A DNA stretch of 55,499 bases, taken from positions 1-55,499 of the forward strand of contig CAZAJW010000328.1 in assembly GCA_964485485.1 (NCBI GenBank), written 5' to 3'. Shown piece by piece: positions 4,546 through 55,150 of the stretch (position 1 is its first letter; each line of letters begins with the position of its first letter). The notes below the pieces were generated by a model. It was given only the letters and a program-made list of their open reading frames with translations, did no database searches and had not been told where the DNA came from. Both the position numbers and the translations under genes were made by a program. This stretch comes from an uncultured Atribacterota bacterium (GTDB lineage: Bacteria; Atribacterota; Phoenicimicrobiia; Phoenicimicrobiales; Stramentimicrobiaceae).

Positions 4546-4566
4546 AATAGTCTGGAGTTACGCTTT

Positions 4567-5286
4567 ATGACTAAGAAAAACACTAAACTTCTGTTATTCA
4601 TATTGTTGATATCTTTTCTTGTTTTTACCTTAGCTGGCTGTTGGAGTACGGGAGAGCATACTGAAGAAACATATAGCATTGAATTAGAAGATGCTGAAAA
4701 AGTTAATACCACGGTTGTAATTTACAAAGGTGATCTCTATATTTCAGGGGGGAAACAACAGTTGCTATTAATCGCGGATTTTGATTATAATTTAAATCAA
4801 TGGGTTCCACAGGTGAGCTATAGCACAGAAAACAATGAAGGTAAATTAAAAATAAAGCAAGAAGAGAAAGAAAAGGGGTTGCTTGATTCTGTTGAAAATA
4901 AATGGTCCTTGATATTTAATCAGACAGTTCCGCTGGAATTAGACATAGTTATGGGTAGTGGAGATAATCATTTGGATTTAAGTTCTATTAATTTAATTGA
5001 TTTAAAGGCTGTGGTTGGGACAGGAAATACTATACTTGATTTAACAGGGAATTATCAGGAAAATATGCAGATTTATTTAGTAGGAGGTGTTGGACATACT
5101 ACTATTAATCTTCCGGAAGATATTGGAGTCCGCCTTTGGATTAAGGATGGTTTAAATAGAATCAGCTGTGATGGTTTTAGGCGATTTGGCAACTTTTATT
5201 TCAATTCGGTCTTTGATTTTTCGGAAAGGAAAATCTATATTACCTTATTTTCTGGTTTAGGCACAATTGATATCAATCTAATATAA
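4567..5286 (+). CDS. Putative lipoprotein, function unknown
   Basis: N-terminal signal sequence with lipobox FTLAGC. The repetitive beta-rich C-terminal half (DLxxxNL-type repeats) suggests a toast-rack or adhesin-like fold. Confidence 0.55.
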   Translation: MTKKNTKLLLFILLISFLVFTLAGCWSTGEHTEETYSIELEDAEKVNTTVVIYKGDLYISGGKQQLLLIADFDYNLNQWVPQVSYSTENNEGKLKIKQEEKEKGLLDSVENKWSLIFNQTVPLELDIVMGSGDNHLDLSSINLIDLKAVVGTGNTILDLTGNYQENMQIYLVGGVGHTTINLPEDIGVRLWIKDGLNRISCDGFRRFGNFYFNSVFDFSERKIYITLFSGLGTIDINLI

Positions 5287-5349: not shown

Positions 5350-5952
5350 ATGCAAAAAACAGTTAGAATATTGGCTGTATTTCTATTGTTTTTTATTCTA
5401 CCTTCCTATTCTGTTTTCAGTATATCGGAAATAGAAATAGAAGATGAAAAAGAAATACAAACAGGGTGGTCTTCAGTAGATGACATTTTTAGTAAAAAGG
5501 AAATCAATCAATTAGTAATAAAACCAAATACTGGACCGATTAAAATTGGTTTTACTGTAAAAGAGGTTAGAGAAGTTATGGGGGTACCTGATAGTATAGA
5601 TGAAGAAGGTCATATATATTATTATCGACAATCTCCCATATTTTTTGATAATGAATGGAAGGTACAATCCTGGGATAATCGCTATGGAAATATAGATGTT
5701 CTGAAGGAAGCCGTAAAAATAGCTCCAGGTTCACATGTATCTGAAGTTTTCAAAGAAAAGGGTTTTCCGATTAGAATTACAAAAAATGGTTATAGTTACC
5801 AATTAGAATATCCCAATGAAATTATTTACGTTAGCAATAGATGGAATATGGAAGCAATTCAATACAGAAATATTGTAGAATACAAACAGGACAGGGCTAA
5901 TATGGAGATTGAAGAATTTTTAGAAGAATTTAATAACTATTTGAAAAAATAA
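5350..5952 (+). CDS. Secreted hypothetical protein
   Basis: Strong RBS GGAGG. N-terminal hydrophobic signal MQKTVRILAVFLLFFILPSYSVFS. No motif recognised. Confidence 0.55.
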   Translation: MQKTVRILAVFLLFFILPSYSVFSISEIEIEDEKEIQTGWSSVDDIFSKKEINQLVIKPNTGPIKIGFTVKEVREVMGVPDSIDEEGHIYYYRQSPIFFDNEWKVQSWDNRYGNIDVLKEAVKIAPGSHVSEVFKEKGFPIRITKNGYSYQLEYPNEIIYVSNRWNMEAIQYRNIVEYKQDRANMEIEEFLEEFNNYLKK

Positions 5953-6045: not shown

Positions 6046-7620
6046 TTAGATAACTTTTAAGCCTGTAAAATTCAGTTTTGCAGTATTATTTTGATTGTTG
6101 CGAACTATCTTCATTGCTTCAGGCAGGAAATCCATTATATCATTAGCGGTTATGCCATCTTCTCCCATTTTTTTGGCTGCCAGGTCTCCTGCAAATCCAT
6201 GAACTAACACACCCTGTCTGGCCGCAGATTCAATGGGTAAGCCTAAAGCAAACATTGCTGCTATCGCTCCGGTTAGAACATCCCCTGAACCGGCAGATGC
6301 CATTCCACTGTTTCCGGTCATATTAATATAGATATTACCATCAGGCAATCCTATTATTGAATGAGCGCCTTTTAAAATAATAATAGCATTAAATTCTTGA
6401 GCAGCCTCTTGAATCATATTAATTGAGTTCTCTTTTATTTTAGCAATAGGCTGTTTCATTAAACGTGACATTTCTCCCGGATGAGGAGTTAATATAGTAG
6501 GTTGCTGACGTAATTTTAAAATAGACAGATCATTGCTTAGGGCAGTTAGTCCATCTCCATCAATCAATATTGGCTTATCGATTTTCGCTAACAATTTCCT
6601 AACTAACTCTTGTGTTTCCTCTTGTATAGATAAGCCAGGCCCGATAATAACAATATCCATTTTATTTGAACATTCCAGTAGTTCCTGAAAATTGTCTAAC
6701 CCAATAGATCCGGACATAGTTTCTCTTTGAGGGAGAAAGACTACTTCACTTGCCCTGGAGCTGATATACGGAATAATGGAAGCAGGAGCCGCTAACCTGG
6801 AATAACCACCACCTGTTTTTAAAAAAGAGAATGATGAGAAATAAGGTGCACCATAGTAATTTTGGGCTCCGGATATAAATAAAGCATTTCCGAAAGTTCC
6901 CTTGTGTCCCTCTTTCGGTCGATTAGGAATTGTAAGTGGGGTATTGATTTGTATATTTATATTTTTTTTATTATACAACTCTGGCGGAAAAGAAATATGA
7001 GAAACGTAAAGATTTCCAGCATAATCATAGCCCGGGTAGAGTATGTTGCCTATTTTAGGAAGGCCGAAGGTTACTGTGTAATCTGCATATACAGCGATAC
7101 CATTAACTTTACCACTATTTCCGTCGATTCCTGAAGGAATATCAATGCTAATCACCTGATTGTTCTTTTGATTTATAAGCTGAATAGTCTCGAAATAATA
7201 TCCCTCGATATCCCGGGTAAGACCAGTACCAAAAATAGCATCGATAATAATGTTTTCCGGTTTTATTGATGTTGCTATTTCTTTAATTGTAGGCATAATC
7301 ATTACCGGTAAATTAAGTTTTTGAATAATTTGCCAGTTTTTTAGGGCAGCATTTTGATATTTTTCCGGGTTGCCTAGAATACATAATTTGATATTTGCAC
7401 CATTGGAAAATAATTTTCTCGCAACTACCAGTCCATCTCCGCCATTATTGCCGACTCCGCAGAAAATTAAGAAATGACTATCATTTATTTTAAAATTTTT
7501 TTCGATTACCTGATAGGTTGCCAATCCTGCATTTTCCATCAAAAGTTCATCACTAATTCCATATTTTTCCATAGCTTCCAGGTCCATGTGCTGCATTTCT
7601 TTTACCCGGCTAATTTTCAT
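6046..7620 (-). CDS. nnr: Bifunctional NAD(P)H-hydrate repair enzyme (epimerase + ADP-dependent dehydratase)
   Basis: YjeF N-terminal motif CGVGNNGGDG and C-terminal carbohydrate-kinase motif GSGDVLTG. 524 aa. Confidence 0.9.
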   Translation of the reverse strand: MKISRVKEMQHMDLEAMEKYGISDELLMENAGLATYQVIEKNFKINDSHFLIFCGVGNNGGDGLVVARKLFSNGANIKLCILGNPEKYQNAALKNWQIIQKLNLPVMIMPTIKEIATSIKPENIIIDAIFGTGLTRDIEGYYFETIQLINQKNNQVISIDIPSGIDGNSGKVNGIAVYADYTVTFGLPKIGNILYPGYDYAGNLYVSHISFPPELYNKKNINIQINTPLTIPNRPKEGHKGTFGNALFISGAQNYYGAPYFSSFSFLKTGGGYSRLAAPASIIPYISSRASEVVFLPQRETMSGSIGLDNFQELLECSNKMDIVIIGPGLSIQEETQELVRKLLAKIDKPILIDGDGLTALSNDLSILKLRQQPTILTPHPGEMSRLMKQPIAKIKENSINMIQEAAQEFNAIIILKGAHSIIGLPDGNIYINMTGNSGMASAGSGDVLTGAIAAMFALGLPIESAARQGVLVHGFAGDLAAKKMGEDGITANDIMDFLPEAMKIVRNNQNNTAKLNFTGLKVI

Positions 7621-8040: not shown

Positions 8041-11000
8041 ATGAGGAAAAGCATGGTAGTACAAAACCAAGAATTCGATATAAGGGTAATTACTGATAAG
8101 CTGTTTCAGGAATTAACCAGGATTGATGTTTTACAGAGGTATCAGTTAGACGTTGGAGATATTAAGGCAATAGAAAGAAATTCTACATTTAAGAACAGCT
8201 TATCTGTGATGGTAAATAAAAGAAAATTCACTGCAGCACAAACAATGGAATTATACTTGGATAGATTTCAGTCTAATGATAAATCGGTAAGTAAAGAGCA
8301 ATGGTTAAAGCAAATTTATAATTTTTGTCAGTATTTATCCTTTCCAGATACCCGGCCGGAATTAAAAGATTTACCATTGAGCAAAAAAAAGTTATTTTTT
8401 ATGTTCTTATTGACCTATCGTCAAATAATTGCTTTAAAGCAACAATATGGTGAAACGGATCCTTTTTTGCAACAATACCCTCTTTCTTTTCTGTCTTCCA
8501 AGGAGATTGGATTGTTGGAGCAACCGGAAGAATACCGGCGTTTTTTAAATGCTTTTGATACACTATTTGTCTATGAAATGATGGCTTTAAGTAAAGAAAT
8601 ATATCAATATACTACACTGGACCATATTTGTGGTGTTCATGCATTGGCTTTAAGCATTGCCAGACAGGTACAAAAACAAGGATTTTCTCTTGATTTGGGA
8701 ATTGTATCCGGATCTGCTGCCGGTCATGATGTGGGCAAATATGGTTGTCGAGGAAGTGAACAAAAAAGGGTTCCTTATCTTCACTATTATTATACCGATA
8801 TATGGTTTCAGCAGCAGAATATTCCTTACATTGGTCATATTGCTGTCAATCATTCGGTATGGGATTTAGAGTTGGAAAATCTTTCCCTGGAAGCGCTAAT
8901 TCTTATTTATTCCGATTTCAGGGTTAAGAATAAGCTAAATTCTAATGAAATGAGCATCTATAGCTTACAAAAATCCTTTCGGGTTATCTTAAACAAATTA
9001 GATAACGTAGATGAAAATAAGGAAAAAAGATATCGTAAGGTATTTGCTAAACTTAAGAATTTTGAGGATTTTTTGATAGAGAAAGGAGTGAATGTAGACC
9101 TTATATTATCGCCTGAAAAGAAATATCATCCACAAAGCAAAAAACAATTGTTTTTTGCTTTGCTTCATGGGGATGAAGTAATTCAACAAATTAAGTATCT
9201 ATCTTTGGAACACAGTTTTGTACTGATGTTTCAGTTGCGTAACGAATCCTCTATAAATTCAATACTTGAATCAGCCCGCAGTGAAGGTGATTGGCAAAAT
9301 CTTCAGGAATATCTAAGAATATTTGCAGAATATGCAAGTTATCTTAATCAGAATGAAAAAATTCTTACATTAAAATATTTATATGAACAGCTGATTTTTC
9401 CAGAAGAAGGAATCAGAAGAAGAAGTGCTAAACTAATTGGATACTTAATTGCTACCTTTGATGAAAAGTACCGAAAAGAGATACCAGTTGATGTGTTTAT
9501 AGAACCGTCAAAAGTAAAAAGTGCTGATTTGCTGGAAAAATATATCCAATTGTTTATAGAACCTACCCATAAAACTTCAGAACTCAATCAATGCAGGGTC
9601 AGAGAAAATTTGCCTTTTATTTTTGATGCTTTATTTAAAAATAGCCAGGGTCGACAGATAGAGCAATATCTCCAGATAATTAAAAATTATTACCGGAAAT
9701 ACAACTATGATAATGTTCCTAAAATCATTGCTATTTATTTGTTACAGGCATTAAAAAGTGTTTCCATTCTCCCAAAACAGGATATAGATCCGGTTTTTGC
9801 GAATTTTTTAATTCGATTTATTCAGCATGATGAGGAAACATTGCGAATTACCGCACTGGATGTTACCGAGGATGTCTTGAATAAAATACCGGAAAAAGAT
9901 CCTTTTAAGGAGAGTTGTAAATTAATTTTAAACAAAATAGTAGAATGTTCTTTGATTCCTGCTGAGAACTATCTCCGATATGAAATAAGCAAAAAAATTA
10001 AAGCAAGAAATATTTTAATCAACCGTCTTCAAAAATATTGCCTCCAAGATGTAGAAAAAATTGATAGGATGTATTTAAATAATCTAAAATCATCTACTGA
10101 TGCTATTATTAAAAAAGTTCAAATTGATATGTTGACAGAAAGAGCTAAATCGAATCATAAAGAAGCTGTTTACACTGCCTTACATTTCTGTAATATTTTA
10201 AAAGTTAGCAGTCATGAGTCGATTCGTAATTATGCTGGCCGATCCCTCATTAAGGTTATTCCCTATCTGAATGTTGAACAGAAGAACGATATCTCAATTG
10301 AGCTTCTAAAAGCATTAGAGATAGATGATTATCAATACACAAAATATATTCCATATTATTTAGGACAATCTATTCCTTTCCTGCCTCCCCGTGAAATAGA
10401 TGAATTTATAGATGATTTGGAACAAAAAATAAAAATAGCAGATCAATGGACCTGTACCTTGCTAATTCGTACATTGGCAGTAGCTATAAGCCGTTATGCA
10501 GCATACCGAGCTAGATATAAAGAGGACCAAATTATTTTTAAAAAGAGATTAGCTAGAATGCTGGGAATATTGATGAATGGTTTGGCACATCATGACCCAC
10601 TTGTAAAACGAGTAACTTCAAGGGTTATCGGTAAAGAAATATTTGCTTCGAGTCATCTTACCCTTAGGGAAAAGGAGAATATTTTTCGGCTTATTGCTAA
10701 AAAATTGCTCAATTTGACTACACCGATTTCCCAACACGACACATTATTATTTTTTAGCAATTCGGTAGCGCTGCATCAACTGTATGTATTTATTTCTGAT
10801 TATTATTTTTACGAAGGGGAGATAAAACTTCAAGTCCCCGAATCCATTGCTTTTTTCCCGGGTTCTTTTGATCCATTTTCCTTAAGTCATAAAGAAATAG
10901 TAAGGGAAATTGAGAAGATGGGGATGGAAGTATATTTGTCAGTTGATGAATTTTCCTGGTCCAAGCGAACCCAACCACATCTTTACCGAAAAAATCTGAT

Positions 11001-13056
11001 TAACATGTCAATTGCGGATGAACTTAATGTATATCTCTATCCTGAAAATTTACCCAGCAATATTGCCAACCCAAATGATTTAAAAATGTTAAAAAAGCAA
11101 TTTACTAAATCTGAAATATATATAGTAGCGGGGAGTGATGTTTTATTGAATGCTTCCGCCTATAATAATATAGAAGACCAGAATTCCATAATTCACTTTC
11201 CTCATATAGTATTTAGTCGAAAATCTTTTCACCTTAGCGAAAAACAGCAAAAAAAATATCATGAGATTATAAACAAGATTGAATCAGAGGTAATTCAATT
11301 GAACCTTCAAGCCCCTTTTGAGGAAATAAGTTCTAGCCAGATTAGAAAAAATATCGATAGCCATCGTAGTATTTCTGATTTGGTTGATCCCTTGGCTGAA
11401 CGTTATATCTATCAATTTGGCTTATATCAAAGAGAGCCACAATACAAATCAACACTACAAAAGGTGTATACCAAGGTAGAGGTACAGGAGAATATAAATA
11501 ATGGCCTTATTGAAAAATTAGTAAATGAAGTATTTCCCGAAAAAAATAGAAAGAAAGCACTGGAAAGTCTAAAAAAATTCAACAAGAAACTTAACCCACG
11601 AATTATCCTTTTTAAGGATACGCAAAATAATGAGAAAATATTGGGTTTTTCTGCCATTCACTGGGTTCGTTCCAGCTTGTTTTATCATGAGTTTAATGAT
11701 AATACTATTTCCCAGTATATAAGAGACAACGCAACCGGTCGCACAATTGTTATTGATGGAGTTTTTGTTGTTTCACCTGATGAAAATACCTCCCGCTTTA
11801 GAGATTTAAGTCAGATTGTTTTAACAGAAGCTCTTACTTTTTGTGTAAAAAGAGACTATGATTATGCCGTTTTCAAAAATATGATTCCAGAAAACAATTC
11901 TCCGGAACTAATAGAAACATTAGAGCTTTTTGGATTTTCAGAATTACCGGTTAGTAAAAGTACTGATCCTATTCTGGCTGTAGATATTCGAAAACCCTGT
12001 ACAATAAGTTTAGATATAGAGACACTTATAAAAGCACCATTTGTGCAAAGCTATAGAGTTATTGAAGCAATAAAAATGGCTCGTAAAAAATTGCAAAGGG
12101 CTATTACACGTTTATACCCTGGTCATCTTCTTATTCCTTTTAATATTGATATAATTAACCAATCTATTGTTGCCAAGGTCTGTCAGGAAAATGGTGTATC
12201 AAGTGAACCGGAAAGTGCCAAAAATTTAGGACCGTTAATGTGTGTGCCCTTTGGCAAGATATTACACAAGATGGTCGTACCTAATACCGTGACTAAGTCG
12301 TTGCATACTGACAAAATCTTTACACCGGATATGCAACATTTCAAAATCGATTCATTTGGTTATTACATGAGCCTGGAGAATCAAGTAAAAATGATTAGGT
12401 CTTTTAATCGGCCAGTTTTGTTGATTGATGATCTTCTCCATAAGGGATATCGTCTCAGAGCTTTGAGTCCTTTGCTCAGAAAAGAAAATATTAAAGTACA
12501 TAAGATTATTGTTGGTTTAATATCAGGGAGAGGAAAAGAATTAGCTATGATTCAAAAACGTTCTGCAGATGGTGCTTATTTTATTCCAAACCTGCGAGTA
12601 TGGTTTAATGAAAGTGATTTATATCCTTTTATTGGAGGAGACGGATTATTCCGGCAAGAATCTGAACAAGGCAACCTGGTTCGTTCAATTAATATGATTT
12701 TACCTTTTGCCTATCCTGTTTTTCTAAAAGGTGTTGACCATAAAATAACTTACTATTTATCCAAAACATGTATCGAGAATGCAATCCATATTATAAAAGC
12801 ACTAGAGAGAGAATACCAGGCAATTTATCATAGAAAATTAACTTTGGGCAATCTAGGTGAAGTTTGCCTGTATCCTCGTTACCCTGATCACGGAAAATAT
12901 ATAAATTATAATATGTCAATGGCAACTTCGATTTACTTAGAAAATGATCTGGAATTATTGCATAGAATCTGGGAAAGAGGGACAAAGTCCAGTTCCGGAA
13001 ATTTACTGCTTTACCCGCATTCCCGGGAATTTAATTTAGGGAAGGAGGTAATATGA
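8041..13056 (+). CDS. Giant multidomain protein: HD phosphohydrolase + HEAT-like repeats + NadD-like nucleotidyltransferase + GNAT-like region + PRTase-like C-terminus
   Basis: HD region is HICGVH...GHDVGKYG...YSDFR (about nt 8620-8940). HEAT-like segments include IRRRSAKLIGYLI, IRNYAGRSLIKVI and LVKRVTSRVIGKEI. The nucleotidyltransferase region has FPGSFDPFSLSHKEI and ISSSQIRKNI (about nt 10840-11430). The PRPP-loop-like motif is RPVLLIDDLLHKGYR (about nt 12410-12450). The start could be ATG 8041 or ATG 8053. Confidence 0.75.
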   Translation: MRKSMVVQNQEFDIRVITDKLFQELTRIDVLQRYQLDVGDIKAIERNSTFKNSLSVMVNKRKFTAAQTMELYLDRFQSNDKSVSKEQWLKQIYNFCQYLSFPDTRPELKDLPLSKKKLFFMFLLTYRQIIALKQQYGETDPFLQQYPLSFLSSKEIGLLEQPEEYRRFLNAFDTLFVYEMMALSKEIYQYTTLDHICGVHALALSIARQVQKQGFSLDLGIVSGSAAGHDVGKYGCRGSEQKRVPYLHYYYTDIWFQQQNIPYIGHIAVNHSVWDLELENLSLEALILIYSDFRVKNKLNSNEMSIYSLQKSFRVILNKLDNVDENKEKRYRKVFAKLKNFEDFLIEKGVNVDLILSPEKKYHPQSKKQLFFALLHGDEVIQQIKYLSLEHSFVLMFQLRNESSINSILESARSEGDWQNLQEYLRIFAEYASYLNQNEKILTLKYLYEQLIFPEEGIRRRSAKLIGYLIATFDEKYRKEIPVDVFIEPSKVKSADLLEKYIQLFIEPTHKTSELNQCRVRENLPFIFDALFKNSQGRQIEQYLQIIKNYYRKYNYDNVPKIIAIYLLQALKSVSILPKQDIDPVFANFLIRFIQHDEETLRITALDVTEDVLNKIPEKDPFKESCKLILNKIVECSLIPAENYLRYEISKKIKARNILINRLQKYCLQDVEKIDRMYLNNLKSSTDAIIKKVQIDMLTERAKSNHKEAVYTALHFCNILKVSSHESIRNYAGRSLIKVIPYLNVEQKNDISIELLKALEIDDYQYTKYIPYYLGQSIPFLPPREIDEFIDDLEQKIKIADQWTCTLLIRTLAVAISRYAAYRARYKEDQIIFKKRLARMLGILMNGLAHHDPLVKRVTSRVIGKEIFASSHLTLREKENIFRLIAKKLLNLTTPISQHDTLLFFSNSVALHQLYVFISDYYFYEGEIKLQVPESIAFFPGSFDPFSLSHKEIVREIEKMGMEVYLSVDEFSWSKRTQPHLYRKNLINMSIADELNVYLYPENLPSNIANPNDLKMLKKQFTKSEIYIVAGSDVLLNASAYNNIEDQNSIIHFPHIVFSRKSFHLSEKQQKKYHEIINKIESEVIQLNLQAPFEEISSSQIRKNIDSHRSISDLVDPLAERYIYQFGLYQREPQYKSTLQKVYTKVEVQENINNGLIEKLVNEVFPEKNRKKALESLKKFNKKLNPRIILFKDTQNNEKILGFSAIHWVRSSLFYHEFNDNTISQYIRDNATGRTIVIDGVFVVSPDENTSRFRDLSQIVLTEALTFCVKRDYDYAVFKNMIPENNSPELIETLELFGFSELPVSKSTDPILAVDIRKPCTISLDIETLIKAPFVQSYRVIEAIKMARKKLQRAITRLYPGHLLIPFNIDIINQSIVAKVCQENGVSSEPESAKNLGPLMCVPFGKILHKMVVPNTVTKSLHTDKIFTPDMQHFKIDSFGYYMSLENQVKMIRSFNRPVLLIDDLLHKGYRLRALSPLLRKENIKVHKIIVGLISGRGKELAMIQKRSADGAYFIPNLRVWFNESDLYPFIGGDGLFRQESEQGNLVRSINMILPFAYPVFLKGVDHKITYYLSKTCIENAIHIIKALEREYQAIYHRKLTLGNLGEVCLYPRYPDHGKYINYNMSMATSIYLENDLELLHRIWERGTKSSSGNLLLYPHSREFNLGKEVI

Positions 13057-32140: not shown

Positions 32141-32288
32141 ATTATTTTACTTAACCATGAAAAAGATGAAAAAAGCTATCTGACAATTTTTCACCTTAAG
32201 TTCAATATAGGAAGTGGGATTGCTAAAAAAAGCTAAACTTCTTTTAGAGATTCTTAAAGCCAACTACTATTCGGGTGTGATATTTGCT
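32141..32288 (+). repeat. Intergenic modular repeat, copy C (A-box + short B + C-box, no 5' hairpin)
   Basis: TTACTTAACCATGAAAAAGA..AGCTATCTGACAATTTTTCACCTTAAGTTC..AGCTAAACTTCTTTTAGAGATTCTTAAAGCCAAC..TTCGGGTGTGATATTTGCT. Confidence 0.75.
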
Positions 32289-34189: not shown

Positions 34190-34231
34190 AAAAATGAGAT
34201 AGTTAACTATATCAATAACTATCTCATTTTT
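34190..34231 (+). terminator. Intrinsic terminator after thioredoxin-like gene
   Basis: AAAAATGAGATAGTTA-loop-TAACTATCTCATTTTT. Confidence 0.65.
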
Positions 34232-34320
34232 ATTTAACATGAAAAAGACAAAGAGAAGCTATATGACGATTTTTCATCAGAAGTTCAATGTAGAAAATAG
34301 GGTTGCAAAAAAGCTAAAAC
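34227..34320 (+). repeat. Intergenic modular repeat, copy D (A-box + short B; C-box absent after AGCTAAAAC)
   Basis: TTATTTAACATGAAAAAGACAAAGAGAAGCTATATGACGATTTTTCATCAGAAGTTCAATGTAGAAAATAGGGTTGCAAAAAAGCTAAAAC aligns best to copy C. Confidence 0.65.
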
Positions 34321-36208: not shown

Positions 36209-36224
36209 TGGCATAGAAATTGCT
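36209..36224 (+). promoter_or_regulatory. Sigma-54 (-24/-12) promoter upstream of htrA
   Basis: TGGCATAGAAATTGCT matches TGGCAC-N5-TTGCW, with the GG and GC at the exact consensus spacing. It lies ~145 nt upstream of the htrA ATG. A sigma-54 activator gene is encoded downstream. Confidence 0.6.
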
Positions 36225-36369: not shown

Positions 36370-37806
36370 ATGTTACAAAAAATTTTTATAAAAAGACAGA
36401 AACTATATTTTATTTCTCTATCACTAATATTTATATTTTTGCTGAGTTTTGCCGGAACAGGCATTGCGCAACAAAAACAGTCTATTGTTAAATCTCTTAG
36501 TGATGATATTGCTCAAATTGCGGAGGTCGTTGGTCCGGCAGTAGTAAATATTGATGTAGTACGTTATGTAGACACATCACCTTTTGGCAGTCAATTTAAT
36601 GATCCATTTTTTGAGAGATTCTTTGAACAATTTGAAGAATATCGAAGACAAATTCCGCAAAAGGGAGCTGGTTCTGGGTTTATTGTTGACAAGGAAGGCC
36701 ATATATTAACCAATGAACATGTAGTTCACAATGCCGAAGAGATAAAAGTCACTCTGTCAGATGGTCGCGAGTTTACTGGTGAGGTAGTTGGTTCTGATAT
36801 CACAACAGATATGGCAATTGTAAAAATTGATGCCAATGATCTTCCGATAGTAGAATTAGGAGATTCTGATTCACTGAGGGTAGGAGAAATTGTCATTGCT
36901 ATTGGAAATCCATATGGCTTAGAAAAAACGGTTACTATGGGTGTTGTTAGCGCCAAGGGTAGAGACATCAATGCCGGTTCAGATGGCCAGGAATATCGTA
37001 ATCTTATTCAAACAGATACAGCAATTAACCCGGGCAACAGTGGCGGTCCCTTGCTCAATACAGATGGAGAAGTAGTAGGAATAAACACTGCAATTATCCC
37101 TTATGCACAAGGTATTGGTTTTGCAATTCCAGTGAGTGTAGCCCAGCGGAATCTTGATGATTTAATTACTCTTGGAAAGGTAAGAAGGTCCTGGTTGGGT
37201 GTTTATATTCAACAGGTAACTCCGGAGATTGCCGAACAATTTGACCTTGAAGAGGCTGAAGGCGTATTGGTTGGTGATGTAATTGAAGATAGTCCTGCTG
37301 AAAAAGCCGGTCTTGTCAGAGGTGATGTAATTATATCTGTTAACGATATAGTAGTAAATACGCCACAGGAGCTGCAGGACACTATCCGCGCTTTAGAAAT
37401 TGGCGAAAGAGCTGAGTTAACAGTAAAGAGAAACGGGGAAGAGACAAATATAATGGTTGATATAGCAGAAATGCCTTCAGATGAAGTCGTAGAAACTAAA
37501 GAAAAAGTCTTTTCCGAACAAACTGGAATCAAGGTTGAAGAAGTGACTCCGGAGATCGCCCGTGAAGCAAACTTGCCATGGGTAAAAGGATTAGTTATAA
37601 CCGATATTGTTCCCGGTAGCTCTGCAGATGATATGGGACTAAGAAGAGGAGACATTGTGTTGGAAGCTAACAGAAATGAAGTATCATCGATTGCTGAATG
37701 GGAAGAGATAATTAATCAGCTAGAAACAGGAGATACTTTATTGCTCTTGGTTTTCCGAGATAGGCATACTTATTATGTTCCTATCAAAATAGAGGAACTT
37801 GAATAA
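36370..37806 (+). CDS. htrA: HtrA/DegP-family serine protease with two PDZ domains
   Basis: Catalytic motifs TNEHV, DMAIVK and GNSGGPL. Two PDZ-like regions. Signal/TM N-terminus. Confidence 0.9.
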   Translation: MLQKIFIKRQKLYFISLSLIFIFLLSFAGTGIAQQKQSIVKSLSDDIAQIAEVVGPAVVNIDVVRYVDTSPFGSQFNDPFFERFFEQFEEYRRQIPQKGAGSGFIVDKEGHILTNEHVVHNAEEIKVTLSDGREFTGEVVGSDITTDMAIVKIDANDLPIVELGDSDSLRVGEIVIAIGNPYGLEKTVTMGVVSAKGRDINAGSDGQEYRNLIQTDTAINPGNSGGPLLNTDGEVVGINTAIIPYAQGIGFAIPVSVAQRNLDDLITLGKVRRSWLGVYIQQVTPEIAEQFDLEEAEGVLVGDVIEDSPAEKAGLVRGDVIISVNDIVVNTPQELQDTIRALEIGERAELTVKRNGEETNIMVDIAEMPSDEVVETKEKVFSEQTGIKVEEVTPEIAREANLPWVKGLVITDIVPGSSADDMGLRRGDIVLEANRNEVSSIAEWEEIINQLETGDTLLLLVFRDRHTYYVPIKIEELE

Positions 37807-37934: not shown

Positions 37935-39626
37935 ATGATAAATATTAAAAAAATATTTCAAAAAAACAATATCTTTCTTGTTCTAATTTTGACCGTACTC
38001 CTCGTCTTTATTTTAGGTTATATCAGTTATTATGAACTGCAAAGGGAAAAGAATTATTTATGGGAATTAGCTCGGGTAGAAGGTTTAAATATTTCTTTTT
38101 CTATTCAAACACTGGGTTCTGAATTTATTTTAAATAGAGATATTTTAATAGAAGTGCTTGATTTATTTCAAAAAGAGGGAATTACCTTTATTGATGTAGT
38201 TGACCATAACGGTAACATCAGGTTAAGCACTAATGAGCAAAGAATGAATCAGCGGGTAGAAATAAGATATCCCGGTGTTGTAAACTATATTCACTCCTAC
38301 GATTCGAAAAATCAGAGAATACTGCAAGTAATAAAGCCTTTTGATTTTGATGACCACTTTTCTTCCGATTTGTTCGGCTATCTTTTTTTGCATGATAAAT
38401 ATTTGTTAATTGGAATAAACATGGAGGATTATTATTTGCGCTATAATCAAATAAAACAGAGAGTAATCCTGAATTATTTCATTATTCTAATATTGTCGCT
38501 ACTAGGTATTTATATGATATTCAGGATACAGGAGAGTATGGTAGTAAGAAGGACATTGAGGAATATGAAGGATTATACCAGCAAATTATTAGAAACGATG
38601 GATAGTGGTGTGATATCCGTAGATGAACAAAGTATTGTCAAAACTTTTAACCGAAAAAGCGAACAAATATTTAACTTAAAGAGAAATGAAGTTATTGGAA
38701 AAAACGCAGAAAAAGTATTGCCGATTAAAATAAAAAATACGTCTATTTATCATTTAGTCTTACAGGAAAAGCAAAAAATTGAGCATGAAATTGAATTTGA
38801 AACCAAGAACCATAGCAGGAAAATACTTGAGGTGAATACCTCTTTGCTTTCCGGAGGAAAAGACCAGAATAGCGGGATAGTTATTTTAGTAAGAGATATA
38901 AGCCGCATTAAAAGCCTATCAGAAGAGATTAACCGTAATAGAAGATTGGCATCCTTGGGAAAATTATCAAGCGGTATAGCACATGAAATTAGAAACCCAC
39001 TTAGTTCCATAAGGGGATTAGCTCAGTTTCTTCATCAGTCGTTCGATAAAAAAGATGAGCGAAAAGAAGATTTGAATATCATTTTAAAAGAGGTGGATAG
39101 GTTAAATCAGTTAATCAACCAGATACTTGATTTTTCCAGGCCGAAGAAATTAATGGTTAGTCGTTTCTCAATACAAAAAGTTATTGAAGAGTTGATTTAT
39201 TTGCTAAAATTAGAGAAAAATGAAAAAGAAATTTCTTTCCAGTATCATCTAAATATTACAAATCAATTTATTGAAGGAGACAGGAACCAAATTAGACAGG
39301 CACTTATGAATATTCTTCTAAATTCGATACAGGCTATAAAGAAGAAAGGAAAAATTGTTATTTCCTTGACAATGGCAACTTATAAAGATAGTGAAATGGT
39401 TAAAATAACAATTCATGATAATGGTGTAGGAATTGATGCTGCTGATTTAGCGCATATATTTGATCCTTTTTTTACCAATAGGGATAATGGATATGGATTG
39501 GGTCTTTCTATTGCTTACAATATTATTGAAATGCATCAGGGGACTATAAATGTTGAGTCAGAAAAAGGGGAAGGAACTGACATAAATATTTTTCTTCCGG
39601 TTAGGAGTAGTAAAGAAATTGAATAA
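37935..39626 (+). CDS. Sensor histidine kinase (TM-sensor, PAS, HisKA, HATPase_c)
   Basis: H-box SSGIAHEIRNPL, N-box NILLNSIQA, G-boxes DNGVGI and GYGLGL. Confidence 0.85.
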   Translation: MINIKKIFQKNNIFLVLILTVLLVFILGYISYYELQREKNYLWELARVEGLNISFSIQTLGSEFILNRDILIEVLDLFQKEGITFIDVVDHNGNIRLSTNEQRMNQRVEIRYPGVVNYIHSYDSKNQRILQVIKPFDFDDHFSSDLFGYLFLHDKYLLIGINMEDYYLRYNQIKQRVILNYFIILILSLLGIYMIFRIQESMVVRRTLRNMKDYTSKLLETMDSGVISVDEQSIVKTFNRKSEQIFNLKRNEVIGKNAEKVLPIKIKNTSIYHLVLQEKQKIEHEIEFETKNHSRKILEVNTSLLSGGKDQNSGIVILVRDISRIKSLSEEINRNRRLASLGKLSSGIAHEIRNPLSSIRGLAQFLHQSFDKKDERKEDLNIILKEVDRLNQLINQILDFSRPKKLMVSRFSIQKVIEELIYLLKLEKNEKEISFQYHLNITNQFIEGDRNQIRQALMNILLNSIQAIKKKGKIVISLTMATYKDSEMVKITIHDNGVGIDAADLAHIFDPFFTNRDNGYGLGLSIAYNIIEMHQGTINVESEKGEGTDINIFLPVRSSKEIE

Positions 39627-40962
39627 AATATTGATTGTTGATGATGAAGAAAGTATCCGAATCATGTTAAAAAGGGTACTTTCCGGAGAACAATATGAAA
39701 TTCAAGAAGCAATTAACGGATTAGAAGCTTTGGAGAAAATTGCTCGCGAAAAATATAGTGCAATTTTATTGGATTTAAAGATGCCTCAAATGAACGGACT
39801 TCAGGTTATAACTAAAATAAAGGAAATGGATATCAGTACTCCAATTATTATGATGTCAGCATATGGGACTATCCCGGATGCAGTAGAGGCAATGAAAATA
39901 GGAGCAGTTGACTATATAGTAAAACCTTTTGACCTGGATGAATTAAAAATGTCGTTAGATCGCATGATTTGTCAGGATGAAATGAAAAATGAGAATCAGT
40001 ATTATAAAGAAGAAGAAGACAAGCGTTTCAATTTTGAAGAGATTATCTCTCAAAGTCAGGTCATGAAAGAGGTATTGAAAATGATTAAGCAGGTTGCTCC
40101 TTTACCTACTACAGTTATGATTACTGGAGAGAGCGGTACTGGAAAAGAATTGATTGCCAGGGCAATTCATAAGAACAGCCCGCGAAAAGAAAAACCATTT
40201 GTGGTAGCTAATTGTGTGGCTTTTTCACCCAATGTACTGGAGAGTGAATTATTCGGACATGAAAAAGGAGCTTTTACCGGGGCCAGTACCAGACGTATGG
40301 GAAGGTTTGAAATTTCCCATGGTGGGACAATATTTTTGGACGAAATCGGAGAGATAAATCTGATGACTCAAGCAAAACTGTTACGAGTAGTACAGGAAAA
40401 GGAATTTGAACGAGTAGGCAGTTCCACCAGTATTAAGATTGATACTAGAATTGTAGCAGCTACCAATAAGGATATAAAAAAAGAAGTTGAAGAACATAAG
40501 TTTCGAGAAGACCTTTATTATCGTCTTAATGTTTTTCATATTCATATTCCTCCCTTAAGAGAAAGAAAAGAAGATATTCCTTTATTGGGACAGCATTTTA
40601 TTGAAAAATATAACAGAATTTTAAACAAACGTATTTCTTGTTTATCAAAAGAAGCTATTAGTCTATTGATGGATTATTCTTACCCCGGGAATGTTAGAGA
40701 GCTAGAGAATATAATTGAAAGAGCGATTATTACGTCTAACGGGAAAATCATCGATAAAGATTTTCTTTTCTTTTTTGACCAAAAAAATATTAATAAAAAA
40801 AATGGTACACTTAAAGAGATGGAGAAAGAGATGATAAAGAAGTATCTTATTCAAAATCATGGCAATCGTACCAAGACAGCGTTAAACCTGGGTATTAGCA
40901 GGAGAAACCTGCAGTTAAAACTAAAAGAGTACCAGATTGATGTACCAAGTAAAAATATTTAA
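39619..40962 (+). CDS. Sigma-54-dependent response regulator (NtrC/ZraR/AtoC type)
   Basis: The receiver domain (ILLDLKMP) is followed by an AAA+ domain with Walker A GESGTGKE and the GAFTGA loop. A C-terminal HTH is also present. The TTG start overlaps the kinase stop. Confidence 0.9.
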   Translation: MNKILIVDDEESIRIMLKRVLSGEQYEIQEAINGLEALEKIAREKYSAILLDLKMPQMNGLQVITKIKEMDISTPIIMMSAYGTIPDAVEAMKIGAVDYIVKPFDLDELKMSLDRMICQDEMKNENQYYKEEEDKRFNFEEIISQSQVMKEVLKMIKQVAPLPTTVMITGESGTGKELIARAIHKNSPRKEKPFVVANCVAFSPNVLESELFGHEKGAFTGASTRRMGRFEISHGGTIFLDEIGEINLMTQAKLLRVVQEKEFERVGSSTSIKIDTRIVAATNKDIKKEVEEHKFREDLYYRLNVFHIHIPPLRERKEDIPLLGQHFIEKYNRILNKRISCLSKEAISLLMDYSYPGNVRELENIIERAIITSNGKIIDKDFLFFFDQKNINKKNGTLKEMEKEMIKKYLIQNHGNRTKTALNLGISRRNLQLKLKEYQIDVPSKNI

Positions 40963-43620: not shown

Positions 43621-43863
43621 TTATTTTATTTAACCATAAAAAACCACTTTCTAAGATGGCGCTAATGGTTAAATAAAATAATTTTACCATAAAAAGATTA
43701 AGTTAAGCTAGATGACAATTTTTACCTGAAGACCAAAATTGAAAGTCATATTGCTTAGATATAACTAAAGTGTAAATAGGAAATCGGAAGAAAAAGTGGT
43801 AAAAAGTTGAAGCTCTTTTAGAGGTTCTTAAGGCTACCTGCTTATGCGGGTGCTATATTTACT
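43621..43863 (+). repeat. Intergenic modular repeat, copy E (longest; 5' hairpin + A-box + B + C-box)
   Basis: 17-nt inverted repeat TTATTTTATTTAACCAT/ATGGTTAAATAAAATAA, then TTTTACCATAAAAAGATTAAGTTAAGCTAGATGACAATTTTTACCTGAAG, then CGGAAGAAAAAGTGG, then the C-box AGCTCTTTTAGAGGTTCTTAAGGCTACCTGCTTATGCGGGTGCTATATTTACT. Confidence 0.8.
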
Positions 43864-43881
43864 GTTATGAGGAGGTTAAAG

Positions 43882-48573: not shown

Positions 48574-48580
48574 CCATTTT

Positions 48581-48773
48581 GTTTAAACACAAAAATTACC
48601 TTCCGTTAAATAAAATGGTTTTACCATAAAGAAAAAGATATAATAACTGAAGTATTTTTACCTGAAGTCCTTAGGAGATTGAATAGAAAAGAGCAGGGAG
48701 AAAATGGCTAATAAACAGCTAAGCCTCTTTAAGGGATTCTTAAATCTACCAACTATGCGGGTGTTGTATTTAC
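48581..48773 (+). repeat. Intergenic modular repeat, copy F (5' hairpin + A-box + B + C-box)
   Basis: It begins 8 nt after the upstream stop codon. Blocks are AAAAATTACCTTCC, TGGTTTTACCATAAAG, TATTTTTACCTGAAGTCC and AGCTAAGCCTCTTTAAGGGATTCTTAAATCTACCAACTATGCGGGTGTTGTATTTACT. Confidence 0.78.
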
Positions 48774-51164: not shown

Positions 51165-51257
51165 ATGGGCTTGTTTGCAGATTTAGAATGGTATTGGATT
51201 GCGGCAATAATAGCAGCTATTGTGGGAGTCATTTGGTGGCTAGGTGGGGAAGAATAA
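51165..51257 (+). CDS. Small (30 aa) hydrophobic protein MGLFADLEWYWIAAIIAAIVGVIWWLGGEE
   Basis: A strong RBS AAGGGAGGTGG sits 5 nt upstream. There is one predicted TM helix. It is not in the ORF track because it is below the size cutoff. Confidence 0.5.
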   Translation: MGLFADLEWYWIAAIIAAIVGVIWWLGGEE

Positions 51258-51392: not shown

Positions 51393-51465
51393 AGTTTTCC
51401 ATGAAAAGGTTAAACCTCTTTTGGAGGCCCTTAGAACCACCCGCTATACGGGTGCGATATTTACT
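51393..51465 (+). repeat. Intergenic modular repeat, copy G (minimal: A-box start fused directly to C-box)
   Basis: AGTTTTCCATGAAAAG is joined to GTTAAACCTCTTTTGGAGGCCCTTAGAACCACCCGCTATACGGGTGCGATATTTACT. Confidence 0.72.
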
Positions 51466-51581: not shown

Positions 51582-51606
51582 GATAAAAGTTTTTTAAAAT
51601 TAGTAA

Positions 51607-51933
51607 AATAGAGTACAGGAAATTTATTGAGTTGTAATGATAACAGAGAGTCAGTAATGGTGGAAGCTGATACATTATCTCAAAAAGCTCACCTGTTTAA
51701 TACCTGAATGAAAGAATTGTTTTATAAAGTAATTCAGGTCGTTTTTAAACGTTAAATAAACAAAGAGGGTAGATGGGGCTGTAGCTCAGTCGGGAGAGTG
51801 CCTCCTTGGCGTGGAGGAGGTCGCGGGTTCGATTCCCGCCAGCTCCACCATAAATATCTACTAAAAAAGGGTGGTACCACGGGAAATCTCGTCCCTTGTA
51901 ATGTATTTGTAAATTACAGGTGACGGGTTTTTT
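51607..51933 (+). promoter_or_regulatory. T-box riboswitch leader of leuS (specifier most likely CUC, Leu)
   Basis: Elements in order along the leader are as follows. AGAGTA at 51610-51615. AG bulge AGAGAG at 51645-51650. Distal loop GGTGGAA at 51659-51665. Specifier region AAAAGCTCA, with CTC at 51688-51690 followed by A. Stem II ACCTGAAT/ATTCAGGT at 51702-51739. F-box-like ACGTTA near 51750. T-box sequence AGGGTGGTACCACG at 51868-51881. Terminator at 51887-51927 followed by a run of six U. Confidence 0.85.
51775..51850 (+). tRNA. tRNA-Ala (anticodon GGC), CCA encoded, located inside the leuS T-box leader
   Basis: The cloverleaf is GGGGCTG-TA-GCTC-AGTCGGGA-GAGT-G-CCTCC-TTGGCGT-GGAGG-AGGTC-GCGGG-TTCGATT-CCCGC-CAGCTCC-A-CCA. 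It has the G3:U70 alanine identity pair. The anticodon GGC is at 51808-51810. Confidence 0.9.
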
Positions 51934-55016: not shown

Positions 55017-55150
55017 ATTTTATTTAACCATAAAAAAGTTTAAGATAAGCTAGCTGACAATTTTTCATTCGAAATCTAAAGTTGGGAATTATAGTGCTTA
55101 AGCAATATTATAGCTGAAGTATAAATAAAAAATCGAAAGAAAAAACTAAA
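55017..55150 (+). repeat. Intergenic modular repeat, copy H (A-box + long B; no C-box)
   Basis: AATTTTATTTAACCATAAAAAAGTTTAAGATAAGCTAGCTGACAATTTTTCATTCGAAATC...TGCTTAAGC...ATAAATAAAAAATCGAAAGAAAAAAC aligns with copy E through the CGGAAGAAAAAG block. Confidence 0.68.

Follow-up and report, generated by a model that had tools for sequence, protein, structure and literature searches.

The seven intergenic repeats found in the 55,499-nucleotide stretch of DNA analysed here (hereafter, the window), which belongs to an uncultured bacterium of the Atribacterota found in metagenomes of Mono Lake, are very probably non-autonomous, internally deleted derivatives (PATEs) of an Atribacterota-specific insertion sequence (IS) of the IS200 group within the IS200/IS605 family. 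This assignment follows from the fact that, in full-length relatives of the repeats, the same ends enclose a gene for a Y1 transposase. Thus, among the possibilities that an earlier note on this DNA had listed, namely BOX elements, MITEs, IS200/IS605-like elements and a structured non-coding RNA, it is the non-autonomous IS200/IS605-like element that is borne out by these relatives, and the family appears to be a fresh example of a well-known kind of element and not a new RNA or regulatory system.

Copies in the window and their modules

Profile searches of the whole window recovered seven elements in 55 kb, all on the + strand and all intergenic, which account for about 2% of the sequence. 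All the same-strand copies that had been reported previously are present, at the positions originally given or within a few bases of them: the nhmmer profiles, which were made from the window copies themselves, yielded six A-box matches (at 441, 32144, 34228, 43678, 48614 and 55017; E 1e-13 to 3e-16) and five C-box matches (at 571, 32229, 43803, 48715 and 51406; E 2e-16 to 3e-19), whereas no further copies were detected in the window, the next-best matches having E values near 1. Comparison of the copies also confirmed both the ordered blocks, that is, an optional 5' palindrome followed by A, a variable B and C, and the abrupt end of the C-box, with similarity breaking off after TATTTRCT; CGGAAGAAAAAGT and its variants are seen only in copies A, D and G. 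Identity of the window copies to the family consensus is 77-89% (77% for the C-box of copy A). The refined coordinates, which leave out the flanking TTTA, are as follows.

Copy A, 396-629, + strand: left end (LE) with palindrome, A-box, B region and C-box; TTTA at 392-395
Copy B, 32150-32287, + strand: LE boundary without palindrome, A-box, very short B region, C-box with degraded hairpin 2; TTTA at 32146-32149
Copy C, 34233 to ~34338, + strand: LE boundary and A-box, with the C-box nearly all gone; TTTA at 34229-34232
Copy D, 43629-43862, + strand: LE, A-box, B region and C-box; TTTA at 43625-43628
Copy E, 48582-48773, + strand: degenerate LE palindrome, A-box of a different subfamily, B region and C-box; flank TTTG at 48578-48581
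Copy F, ~51395-51464, + strand: minimal copy, TTTTCCATGAAAAGG plus an intact C-box
Copy G, 55023 to ~55150, + strand: LE boundary, A-box and B region, without a C-box (decayed or deleted); TTTA at 55019-55022

The genomic settings of the copies are diverse. Copy A precedes an RNase J-like gene, lying upstream of it, copy B lies upstream of an acylphosphatase gene, copy E starts 8 nt past the stop codon of an AP-endonuclease-like gene, copy F has the EF-G gene on one side and the leuS T-box promoter on the other, and copy G lies upstream of a tRNA-Val/Asp cluster. At the site of copy B, the relative L112 contains a longer version of the element; the C-box of copy C is reduced to GCTAAAAC...GATATTTTA, and in the corresponding intergenic region of the relatives L112 and L121 both the A-box and the C-box are present.

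The anatomy of the family is best followed in copy D.

43625-43628, + strand: flanking TTTA, the transposon-adjacent target tetranucleotide, outside the element
43629-43681, + strand: left end, with TTTAACCAT, AAAAAA, the inner hairpin and TAATGGTTAAATAAAAT
43682-43745, + strand: A-box (nhmmer match 43678-43743, E 1.7e-15), which aligns with the left end and tnpA start of L142 and L135
43746-43806, + strand: variable B region, from subfamily comparison, its 3' part set against the tnpA 3' end
43807-43862, + strand: C-box (nhmmer match 43803-43864, E 1.4e-18), comprising the tnpA end and the right end (RE)

The left end of copy D contains an inner hairpin, CCACTTTCT-AAG-ATGGCGC (~43644-43662); the outer arms, 43621-43637 and 43665-43681, pair with each other. 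In the A-box, the segment ..TTTTACCATAAAAAGATTAAG..AGCTAGATGACA.. of copy D corresponds to ..TTTTACCATAAAAACCG..AAGATAAGATATGACT.. of the full-length IS, a homology that spans the 5' UTR and the start codon of tnpA. The C-box includes hairpin 1 (~43811-43826), the loop of which contains the ancestral stop codon, CTC TTT TAG; in hairpin 2, positions 43836-43841 pair with 43846-43851, and this hairpin is followed by 10 nt (CTATATTTAC) that end at 43862. Judging from these alignments, the optional 5' hairpin of the earlier description corresponds to the left end of the transposon, the A-box to the 5' UTR of the transposase gene with the start codon, and the C-box to the last transposase codons together with the right end. 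The B region, in part, would be decayed transposase coding sequence: its 3' part in copy D, ..AAATCGGAAGAAAAAGTGGTAAAAAG, may be a remnant of the AAG/GAA-rich end of the tnpA coding region, ..CAAGAAGAAAGCGACCAACAAGAATTTGGCCTCTTTTAG, a likeness seen by eye in low-complexity DNA.

The parent insertion sequence and its spread

Other contigs of Atribacterota contain a gene for a Y1 (HUH) transposase (Pfam PF01797) between this left end and the C-box, with the tnpA start codon inside the A-box and the stop codon inside the loop of C-box hairpin 1. The latter arrangement is seen at the Y1 transposase C-terminus in L129, a type of C-terminus that is common to 26 protein clusters, 22 of which contain PF01797, and the LE-tnpA-C-box array recurs as a single unit with differing flanks in L135, L136, L137 and L142-145; in L142, it occupies positions 1684-2254. 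The left end of this IS is matched by copies A and D (76% identity over 70 nt; E 2e-8 and 5e-11, respectively) and its right end by copies A (73% identical), B and E. The full-length element thus consists of a left end with a subterminal hairpin, the Y1 HUH tnpA gene and a right end equivalent to the C-box, and the window copies retain the left end, the tnpA 5' UTR with the start codon, scraps of coding sequence, and the last tnpA codons with the right-end hairpin.

After conceptual repair, TnpA can be aligned over its full length with the solved IS200/IS605 transposases 2ec2, 2xm3 and 2a6m (E 1e-24 to 1e-20), and it contains both the HUH motif, in the form HIH, and a C-terminal tyrosine region. 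A tnpA with these ends and an intact reading frame was not found: a +1 frameshift, at ..CCT CTT AAG ATT A|TC AAT.., is present in every copy seen, and the L135-type tnpA has a second defect. Codon differences in the open reading frame (ORF) downstream of the shared frameshift are suggestive of purifying selection. No Y1 transposase was detected in about 700 kb of element-bearing loci, whether the ORFs were clustered, tblastn was run with IS608 TnpA and an Atribacterota IS200 TnpA as queries, or the ORFs upstream of the C-boxes were read. Neither was a tnpB- or iscB-like ORF noticed in the loci fetched; the parent IS encodes tnpA only. A second, intact Atribacterota IS200 (L119, L124-L134) was considered and rejected as the parent because it differs both in its hairpins (CCCCGCAGCTCTGCTGCGGGG) and in its ends.

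Multiple copies of the family occur in at least 8 Atribacterota genome bins, a pattern scan giving about 80 C-box copies in 8 bins, and several contigs end at the repeat. No copies were found in viral contigs, plasmids or phages, and a search of the literature for Atribacterota repeats returned nothing. Genomes of 88-93% identity differ in whether sites D, F and X contain an element; site F, for instance, is empty in L098 (..AGCAATTTTATTAAATAGCAAC..), and site E is occupied by another subfamily in L098 and is empty in L103. The filled and empty alleles, along with the different subfamilies at site E, would imply that the element has been mobile on the evolutionary scale.

Ends, hairpins and the likely mode of transposition

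The left boundary is sharp, TTTA|TTTAACCAT: among 44 copies, the four positions 5' of TTTAACCAT are T, T, T and A in 95, 93, 95 and 90%, respectively, and farther positions are not conserved. This tetranucleotide belongs to the target because its counterpart at the X site, TTGA, includes the DsbD stop codon in the filled alleles, and the empty allele, L113, has the same stop codon. The right end lies exactly 10 nt past the foot of the RE hairpin (...TTTAC|), and in four contexts of the full-length IS, flanking similarity is lost immediately beyond ..GGTG + 10 nt (..TTTAC|); the F- and X-site boundaries are uncertain by 1-2 nt owing to T-rich, diverged flanks. In IS608, the right end is likewise cleaved 10 nt 3' of the hairpin foot (PMC3201880), and the same distance separates the hairpin from the right end in a bona fide other IS200 of Atribacterota.

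No target-site duplication could be identified in any register in the 42 complete copies, flank matches being equal to the permutation mean, and the only flank repeat in these copies is the element-borne TATTTA. There are no terminal inverted repeats either, TTTAACCAT.. and ..GATATTTAC not being mutual inverted copies. These findings bear directly on the possibility that the family is a BOX-like element or a classical MITE moved by a DDE transposase, with the Y1 transposase next to the C-box being a coincidence. The pneumococcal BOX elements (boxA, boxB repeats, boxC) indeed share with the present family the composite intergenic layout, conserved terminal and variable internal modules, many deletion variants, predicted stem-loops and an orientation that follows the coding bias (PMC3049150). 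However, the termini of BOX are inverted-repeat-like and mobilisation by ISSpn2 has been proposed, whereas here the modules are pieces of a Y1-transposase IS, with the transposase start and stop codons within the homologues of the A-box and C-box, and the LE-tnpA-RE unit recurs in different flanks; besides, a DDE transposase was not observed in the vicinity of any copy. Hence, of the earlier analogies, the classical MITE, which would require inverted termini and target duplication, has to be abandoned, the similarity to BOX is one of layout alone, and the DDE scenario is largely refuted and, in our estimate, highly improbable.

In the census of palindromes from 33 copies, the LE hairpin has the consensus CCACCTTCT-AAG-AGAAGGTGG and lies ~15 nt from the boundary; the RE hairpin, CCACCCGC-TAT-GCGGGTG, has 95% of its cells paired. 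The two are in the same orientation, both reading CCACC..GGTG on the + strand, and in a by-eye alignment their consensus sequences are identical in 14 of the 21 positions, with two pair positions differing in a compensatory manner. It had been claimed that the C-box stem varies between copies while keeping its pairing; this holds for copy F (CACCCG/CGGGTG) and, through a T.G wobble, for copy D (ACCTGC/GCGGGT), but the stem has largely decayed in copies A, B and E. The integron attC-like or Xer/dif-like GTTAAAT/ATTTAAC within the palindrome is a single AT-rich 7-mer and was dropped as a candidate once the transposase had been found.

All these features are compatible with the IS200 group, represented by Salmonella IS200, Helicobacter IS608 and Deinococcus ISDra2, with which the parent IS shares the Y1 HUH transposase (PF01797; alignment to 2a6m and 2xm3), and with the IS200/IS605 family in general, which has subterminal hairpins of one strand at both ends, a tetranucleotide flanking the LE, and neither inverted repeats nor target duplication. 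The differences are in the end and hairpin sequences, the target (TTTA here as opposed to TTAC), the LE hairpin, which here is inside a 13-bp outer palindrome and 15 nt (or 11 nt) from the boundary as opposed to 19 nt, the shared +1 frameshift in every tnpA seen, and the host phylum, Atribacterota. By analogy with established IS200/IS605 biology, copies with two hairpins would have been mobilised in trans, a TnpA dimer binding both hairpins on the top strand and cutting 3' of the flanking TTTA as well as 3' of the terminal TTTAC; the element would then leave as a single-stranded circle, to be pasted 3' of another TTTA in the single-stranded DNA of a replication fork. Transposition of this kind would leave no inverted repeats and no target duplication and would give rise to a strand bias. 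The window copies are probably for the most part immobile relics, given that most of them lack one end or have broken hairpins.

Close counterparts are the PATEs of Haloquadratum walsbyi and Geobacillus stearothermophilus, which are gene-less, have IS200/IS605-type ends, occur in many copies and are mobilised in trans (PMC10055086). The window elements resemble them in the lack of genes, the retention of LE and RE, the copy number and the need for mobilisation in trans, but the PATEs described so far derive mostly from tnpB/iscB elements, often with omega-RNA genes, whereas the parent here is a tnpA-only IS. The PATEs of Haloquadratum are 500-750 bp long; the elements described here are ~70-260 nt, with strongly modular internal deletions. 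A further parallel is with the REP/REPIN-RAYT systems, in which hairpin-containing intergenic repeats are similarly handled by a Y1 HUH enzyme, a domesticated IS200-like transposase, and the 5' palindrome of the Atribacterota family resembles a REPIN-like doublet. However, REPs are units of 20-40 nt with a GTAG-type 5' motif that flank a single-copy RAYT gene and have no distinct left and right ends, whereas the Atribacterota family includes a classical LE-tnpA-RE insertion sequence.

Orientation, transcription and significance of the family

Could the elements nevertheless function as RNA or as promoters? The orientation of the copies relative to the flanking genes, which the earlier note had proposed to count, is clearly biased: about 78% point the same way as these genes, equally so for upstream and downstream ones (64:17 and 68:20). 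Another 3' gene end lies ahead of 17 copies, 11 of them between convergent genes and 6 opposed to both neighbours. In the IS200/IS605 family, the top strand would be expected on the lagging-strand template, which would tie orientation to replication. All 7 window copies are on the strand of positive GC skew; on 8-kb loci, the skew cannot separate replication orientation from transcription orientation because the coding-strand effect dominates it. In many cases, 3-60 nt separate the end of the C-box from a ribosome-binding site (RBS) further on, so these C-boxes must be co-transcribed in 5' UTRs, and copy D is located between an RBS and the promoter-like TGtTATAAT, which is conserved in L098 and was spotted by eye, being absent from the promoter-scan hits.

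Both the bias and these positions would fit functional structured RNAs, be it a multi-copy sRNA, a UTR module for stability or attenuation, or PATE-borne, omega-RNA-like guides for a TnpB-type nuclease acting in trans, in which case the variable DNA after TTTAC would be the guide; PATEs indeed often encode omega RNAs (PMC10055086). The C-box hairpins, moreover, show 91% pairing in a set of 77 copies taken from many genomes. The covariation is nonetheless weak: hairpin 2 has only one-sided changes, its 3' arm being fixed by the search pattern, and hairpin 1 has a single U-A to C-G swap (11 cells) with U-G intermediates, so that covariation, weak and partly biased by the search pattern, was discarded as proof of RNA function. 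Nor does the orientation bias discriminate, given that BOX, RUP and SPRITE repeats mirror the coding bias as well (PMC3049150). Against a functional RNA, furthermore, no known RNA family matches any copy (in Rfam 15, there are no matches at the gathering thresholds, and at E<=10 only chance miRNA-like hairpins far below threshold appear), predicted folds beyond the two C-box hairpins vary by subfamily, top-strand G.U and C.A mismatches number 43 and 22, which is no clear excess and in part an alignment artefact, the window copies are decayed, and the parent is tnpA-only, no tnpB or iscB having been noticed in the loci fetched. Most omega RNAs, for their part, are missing from Rfam. Thus, nothing specific points to the non-coding RNA suggested originally, and we regard this reading as distinctly unlikely.

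A C-box serving as a portable promoter for the downstream gene, either of the sigma-54 type (GG-N10-GC in GGGTGCGATATTTGCT) or with an extended -10 element (TGcGATATT), and with the A-box as an enhancer, is scarcely probable and was rejected. The frequent location of the C-box directly upstream of an RBS, the TTTGCT variants that fit the GG-N10-GC spacing and the sigma-54 activators encoded by the organism are in keeping with such a promoter, but most copies read TTTACT and thus have no -12 GC, the canonical sigma-54-like site in the window is different (TGGCATAGAAATTGCT at 36209-36224), there is no -35 box at 16-18 nt, the 17 copies that face the 3' end of the next gene are not accounted for, and separate, good sigma-70 promoters are present downstream of copies E and F. 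Two further candidates were set aside. An intrinsic terminator is flagged by a simple scan only at hairpin 2 of copy D, and weakly, and the 5' UTR positions argue against it; a small peptide encoded by the A-box (ATGACAATTTTTCACCTG..) is in a frame that is not conserved between copies, and its ATG is a relic of the tnpA start codon.

Hairpin 1 resembles an RBS/anti-RBS pair (AACCTC..GAGGTT), and the C-box can lie directly before the RBS. Hence the idea that some copies are host-adopted RNA modules, in which the C-box would gate translation or stabilise the mRNA; alternatively, the family might be kept mobile by an IS200 transposase produced via a conserved programmed +1 frameshift, an idea that stems from the shared frameshift and from the codon differences suggesting selection on the ORF downstream. 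We consider it unlikely that one or the other applies.

As deletion derivatives of an IS200-group element, the repeats would constitute the first described high-copy mobile repeat family for Atribacterota, a phylum for which nearly all knowledge comes from metagenome bins. The repeat accounts for contig breaks in element-bearing Atribacterota genomes, and its recognition provides an annotation for intergenic blocks of ~200 nt that might otherwise be taken to be riboswitches, small RNAs or promoters. The differences between filled and empty sites at 88-93% genome identity may be usable as strain markers, and a rearrangement at one copy, in L098 compared with L099, suggests that the elements are recombination hot spots. 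For transposon biology, only two points are unusual: the many modular deletion derivatives to which a tnpA-only IS200 has given rise, and the universally frameshifted transposase.

Copies of the element inside and outside the window

The seven copies with shared, ordered blocks that the earlier note had described are borne out: each interval was read directly, the MAFFT alignment is in register, and profiles made from the copies recover 6 A-boxes and 5 C-boxes in the 55.5-kb window (E 1e-13 to 3e-19), every one on the + strand. The search for further copies in the window was negative, the remaining profile matches being no better than E ~1.

396-629, + strand: copy A, right hairpin broken
32150-32287, + strand: copy B, no left hairpin, right hairpin broken
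34233 to ~34338, + strand: copy C, no right end
43629-43862, + strand: copy D, stem pairing preserved through a T.G wobble
48582-48773, + strand: copy E, right hairpin broken
~51395-51464, + strand: copy F, no left hairpin
55023 to ~55150, + strand: copy G, no right end

All these copies are intergenic, and the genes downstream are unrelated and housekeeping (RNase J-like, acylphosphatase, PP-loop ATPase, FlK-type thioesterase, EF-G, the leuS T-box and a tRNA cluster). None of the copies matches an Rfam family. The proposed covariation of the GC-rich C-box hairpin proved weak, since the stem is kept in D and F only and is largely gone in A, B and E. The identity of the C-boxes to the consensus is 77-89% in the window vs a median of 91% elsewhere.

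Some other features of the window deserve mention. The leuS T-box leader (Rfam RF00230, 94-102 bits; 51602-51899) holds a complete tRNA-Ala(GGC) gene (51775-51850) between the specifier region and the antiterminator/terminator, an arrangement that is kept in two other Atribacterota lineages (L098 13233-13528, L103 17569-17895) and of which our literature search turned up no account. A 30-aa small ORF, MGLFADLEWYWIAAIIAAIVGVIWWLGGEE, hydrophobic and conserved, sits with an RBS of its own between the EF-G gene and copy F (51165-51257; L001 17215-17307); it also occurs in L098 and L103, and is retained in element-free relatives. A 1671-aa ORF (8041-13056) yields almost no Pfam signal, only a weak cytidylyltransferase-like match at residues ~938-1103.

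The family is not restricted to the window. One window protein has an identical match on Mono Lake metagenome contigs, with relatives named Atribacterota, and one pass of a C-box pattern scan over 185,579 species genomes returned 95 loci, of which ~80 are genuine copies and come from eight Atribacterota bins (Candidatus Oleincola secundus, six further MAGs of the phylum and one bin labelled Halanaerobiales), the remainder being chance matches in unrelated genomes. The C-box consensus is GTTAAACCTCTTTTAGAGGTTCTTAAAGCCACCCGCTATGCGGGTGCGATATTTACT, and the DNA right after it is unrelated between copies; several contigs start or stop within the C-box, the signature of a high-copy repeat. In most copies, the A-box precedes the C-box by 60-80 nt; several subfamilies are distinguished by the B region, and in short forms the left end is joined straight to the C-box. 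Some elements (L021 ~4500-4660; L059 ~5500-5720; L044 ~6850-6960; L076 ~3900-4020) carry an extra internal module of ~230 nt with a second long palindrome (AGGATATTCAAGGGGAA..TTCCCCTTGAATATCCT-like), possibly a further small mobile element nested within B. Searches of viral contigs, plasmids and phages detected nothing similar to the family, and a literature search for repeats in Atribacterota brought up no paper on any.

Ends of the element and the probable parent insertion sequence

The left boundary is sharp: in 44 copies, conservation starts four bases before TTTAACCAT, these bases being TTTA at 90-95% and the preceding base unconserved. At the site between the DsbD and thioredoxin genes, the flanking four bases are TTGA, where TGA is the DsbD stop codon that is present also in the empty allele of L113; thus, the TTTA position is target DNA. 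When left and right flanks were compared in every register, they matched no more than permuted pairs, the sole repeat being an element-borne TATTTA close to both ends, and the termini are not inverted copies of each other. Without inverted repeats and target duplication, a classical MITE, one option in the earlier note, is rejected.

The optional 5' hairpin consists of an outer 13-bp palindrome around an inner GC-rich hairpin, CCACCTTCT-AAG-AGAAGGTGG, that is similar in sequence and orientation to C-box hairpin 2 (CCACCCGC-TAT-GCGGGTG); in a by-eye alignment of the two consensuses, 14 of the 21 positions agree, and two of the differences are compensatory. The inner left hairpin begins 15 nt (or 11 nt) from the boundary and the right hairpin stops 10 nt before ..TTTAC. 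The corresponding distances in IS608 are 19 nt and 10 nt, with the flanking TTAC outside the IS, no DNA gained or lost, and top-strand specificity (PMC3201880). Judged from sequence, the end geometry is that of IS200/IS605 elements.

So where is the transposase? Searches of ~700 kb of element-bearing loci were negative. On one contig that carries a different IS200 (described below), L129, a C-box is directly preceded by an open frame ending ..YCVSSIGLDEAKIRKYVKYQEEKERQEESDQQEFGLF*, a typical Y1 transposase C-terminus, and the loop of C-box hairpin 1 contains its TAG stop codon. In a protein search with a 40-residue minimum, for which seven residues were added to this peptide, it matched 26 clusters, most of ~70 aa and 22 of them annotated PF01797. 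The contigs of these clusters carry the whole element, namely a left end TTTATTTCACCTTAAAAAACCACCTTCTTTGAAGGTGGTAATGGGTAAAAGGTTTTACCATAAAAACCGCTATATATGTTAAGATAAGAT, then tnpA (starting ATGACTAAATGG.., MTKWKKLSHTIYQCKYHIVWCPKYRYRIL.., with the HUH motif ..KEDHIHVILSIP..), then a C-box that ends ..GCCACCTGCTAAGCGGGTGGATTCTTTAC; in L135, L136 and L142, differing flanks begin straight after TTTAC. Copies A and D align to the IS left end (76% over 70 nt, E 2e-8 and 5e-11), and copies A, B and E to its right end. The counterpart of the A-box motif AGATAAGCTAGATGACA is AGATAAGATATGACT, which is the leader and start codon of tnpA, and the 3' portion of B, rich in AAG/GAA, looks like the 3' coding end of tnpA. 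With its frameshift conceptually repaired, TnpA aligns full-length with IS200/IS605 transposases of known structure, 2ec2, ISDra2 2xm3 and IS608 2a6m (E 1e-24 to 1e-20).

That frameshift recurs: all tnpA genes seen with these ends (L142 1769-2213; L135 2770-3213; protein clusters P0241-P0261) share one +1 site, ..CCT CTT AAG ATT A|TC AAT ATC.., with a second defect in the L135 type. In the downstream 70-aa ORF, synonymous and non-synonymous codon differences are about equal in number, and a dN/dS near 0.3, a rough estimate, suggests purifying selection. The shared shift could be a programmed frameshift, or the family could be propagated in trans.

A group II intron directly abuts the TTTAC right end of the IS, with GTGCGCCCAGC.. 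next (L135 3255-3439, L137 563-681; RF02001 (D1-D4) in Rfam for L135, 79.8 bits). It may have targeted the right-end hairpin, as class C introns do with terminators. Sister lineages within Atribacterota contain multiple copies of a second IS200, unrelated to the first (L119 3939-4387; L124 3890-4490; L125-L134); its TnpA, of 148 aa, is intact, and its hairpins are CCCCGCAGCTCTGCTGCGGGG. Its right end also lies 10 nt past the hairpin; its ends and hairpins differ, and it was rejected as the parent. In L124 and L126, its insertion point, judged from sequence, seems to lie within a decayed A-box of the C-box family.

Gain, loss and orientation of copies

Copies are gained and lost at syntenic loci of relatives. 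At site F, the window carries a copy and L098 is empty; at site D, the window again carries one, and that of L098 sits elsewhere within the same intergenic region; at site E, the window and L098 are occupied by different subfamilies and L103 is empty. L110, L112, L121 and L122 have a copy at the DsbD-thioredoxin site, which is empty in the window, L113 and L109. Relatives whose FlK thioesterase or DsbD is <=84% identical to that of the window have few copies or none over the 14-20 kb examined (one in L124). L098 (10300-10700) and L099 (5026-5292), whose FlK thioesterase (P0013) is identical, share the left flank, the AP-endonuclease gene and the adjacent element, and have different genes directly beyond the C-box, a difference that suggests rearrangement by recombination between copies.

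Crude ORF calls made around 101 C-boxes put every copy but one between genes; the exception falls within a called ORF, probably a spurious one. Downstream genes have the orientation of the element 68 times and the opposite one 20 times, and upstream genes 64 and 17 times, respectively; 11 copies lie between convergent genes and 6 are opposed to both neighbours. These counts for both neighbours indicate that the elements follow the general direction of genes (or replication), as do BOX, RUP and SPRITE in pneumococci (PMC3049150). Placement relative to sigma-70-like promoters differs between copies: D lies between a conserved TGtTATAAT, by eye an extended -10 element, and the RBS, whereas E and F are upstream of the next promoter. 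The C-box sequence GGGTGCGATATTTGCT does not fit a sigma-54 promoter, most copies having TTTACT; a canonical-looking sigma-54 site in the window is TGGCATAGAAATTGCT (36209-36224), upstream of an HtrA-like protease gene (36370-37806) that is followed by genes for a PAS histidine kinase and a sigma-54-dependent response regulator (37935-40962). Given the orientation counts, the variable promoter position and the sigma-54 misfit, the element as promoter, leader or regulon mark is rejected. A role at the RNA level, which the earlier note had considered in view of the hairpins, finds no specific support here and seems unlikely.

Identity and mechanism

The copies are very probably PATE-like, non-autonomous derivatives that arose by deletion from an Atribacterota IS200-group insertion sequence: their ends are homologous to those of an IS with a transposase gene between them, TTTA flanks the left end, the right end has the 10-nt geometry, inverted repeats and target duplications are absent, and insertions are polymorphic between related genomes. 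Every family-defining feature of IS200/IS605 PATEs that could be tested was found here, whereas the likeness to BOX elements is one of layout only; among the options of the earlier note, the non-autonomous IS200/IS605-like element is the best supported, on homology of ends and transposase. By established IS200/IS605 biology, a TnpA dimer would bind both hairpins, and single-strand 'peel-and-paste' transposition would insert the element 3' of TTTA at replication forks, from which a strand bias would result. The result is useful for the annotation and assembly of Atribacterota genomes.
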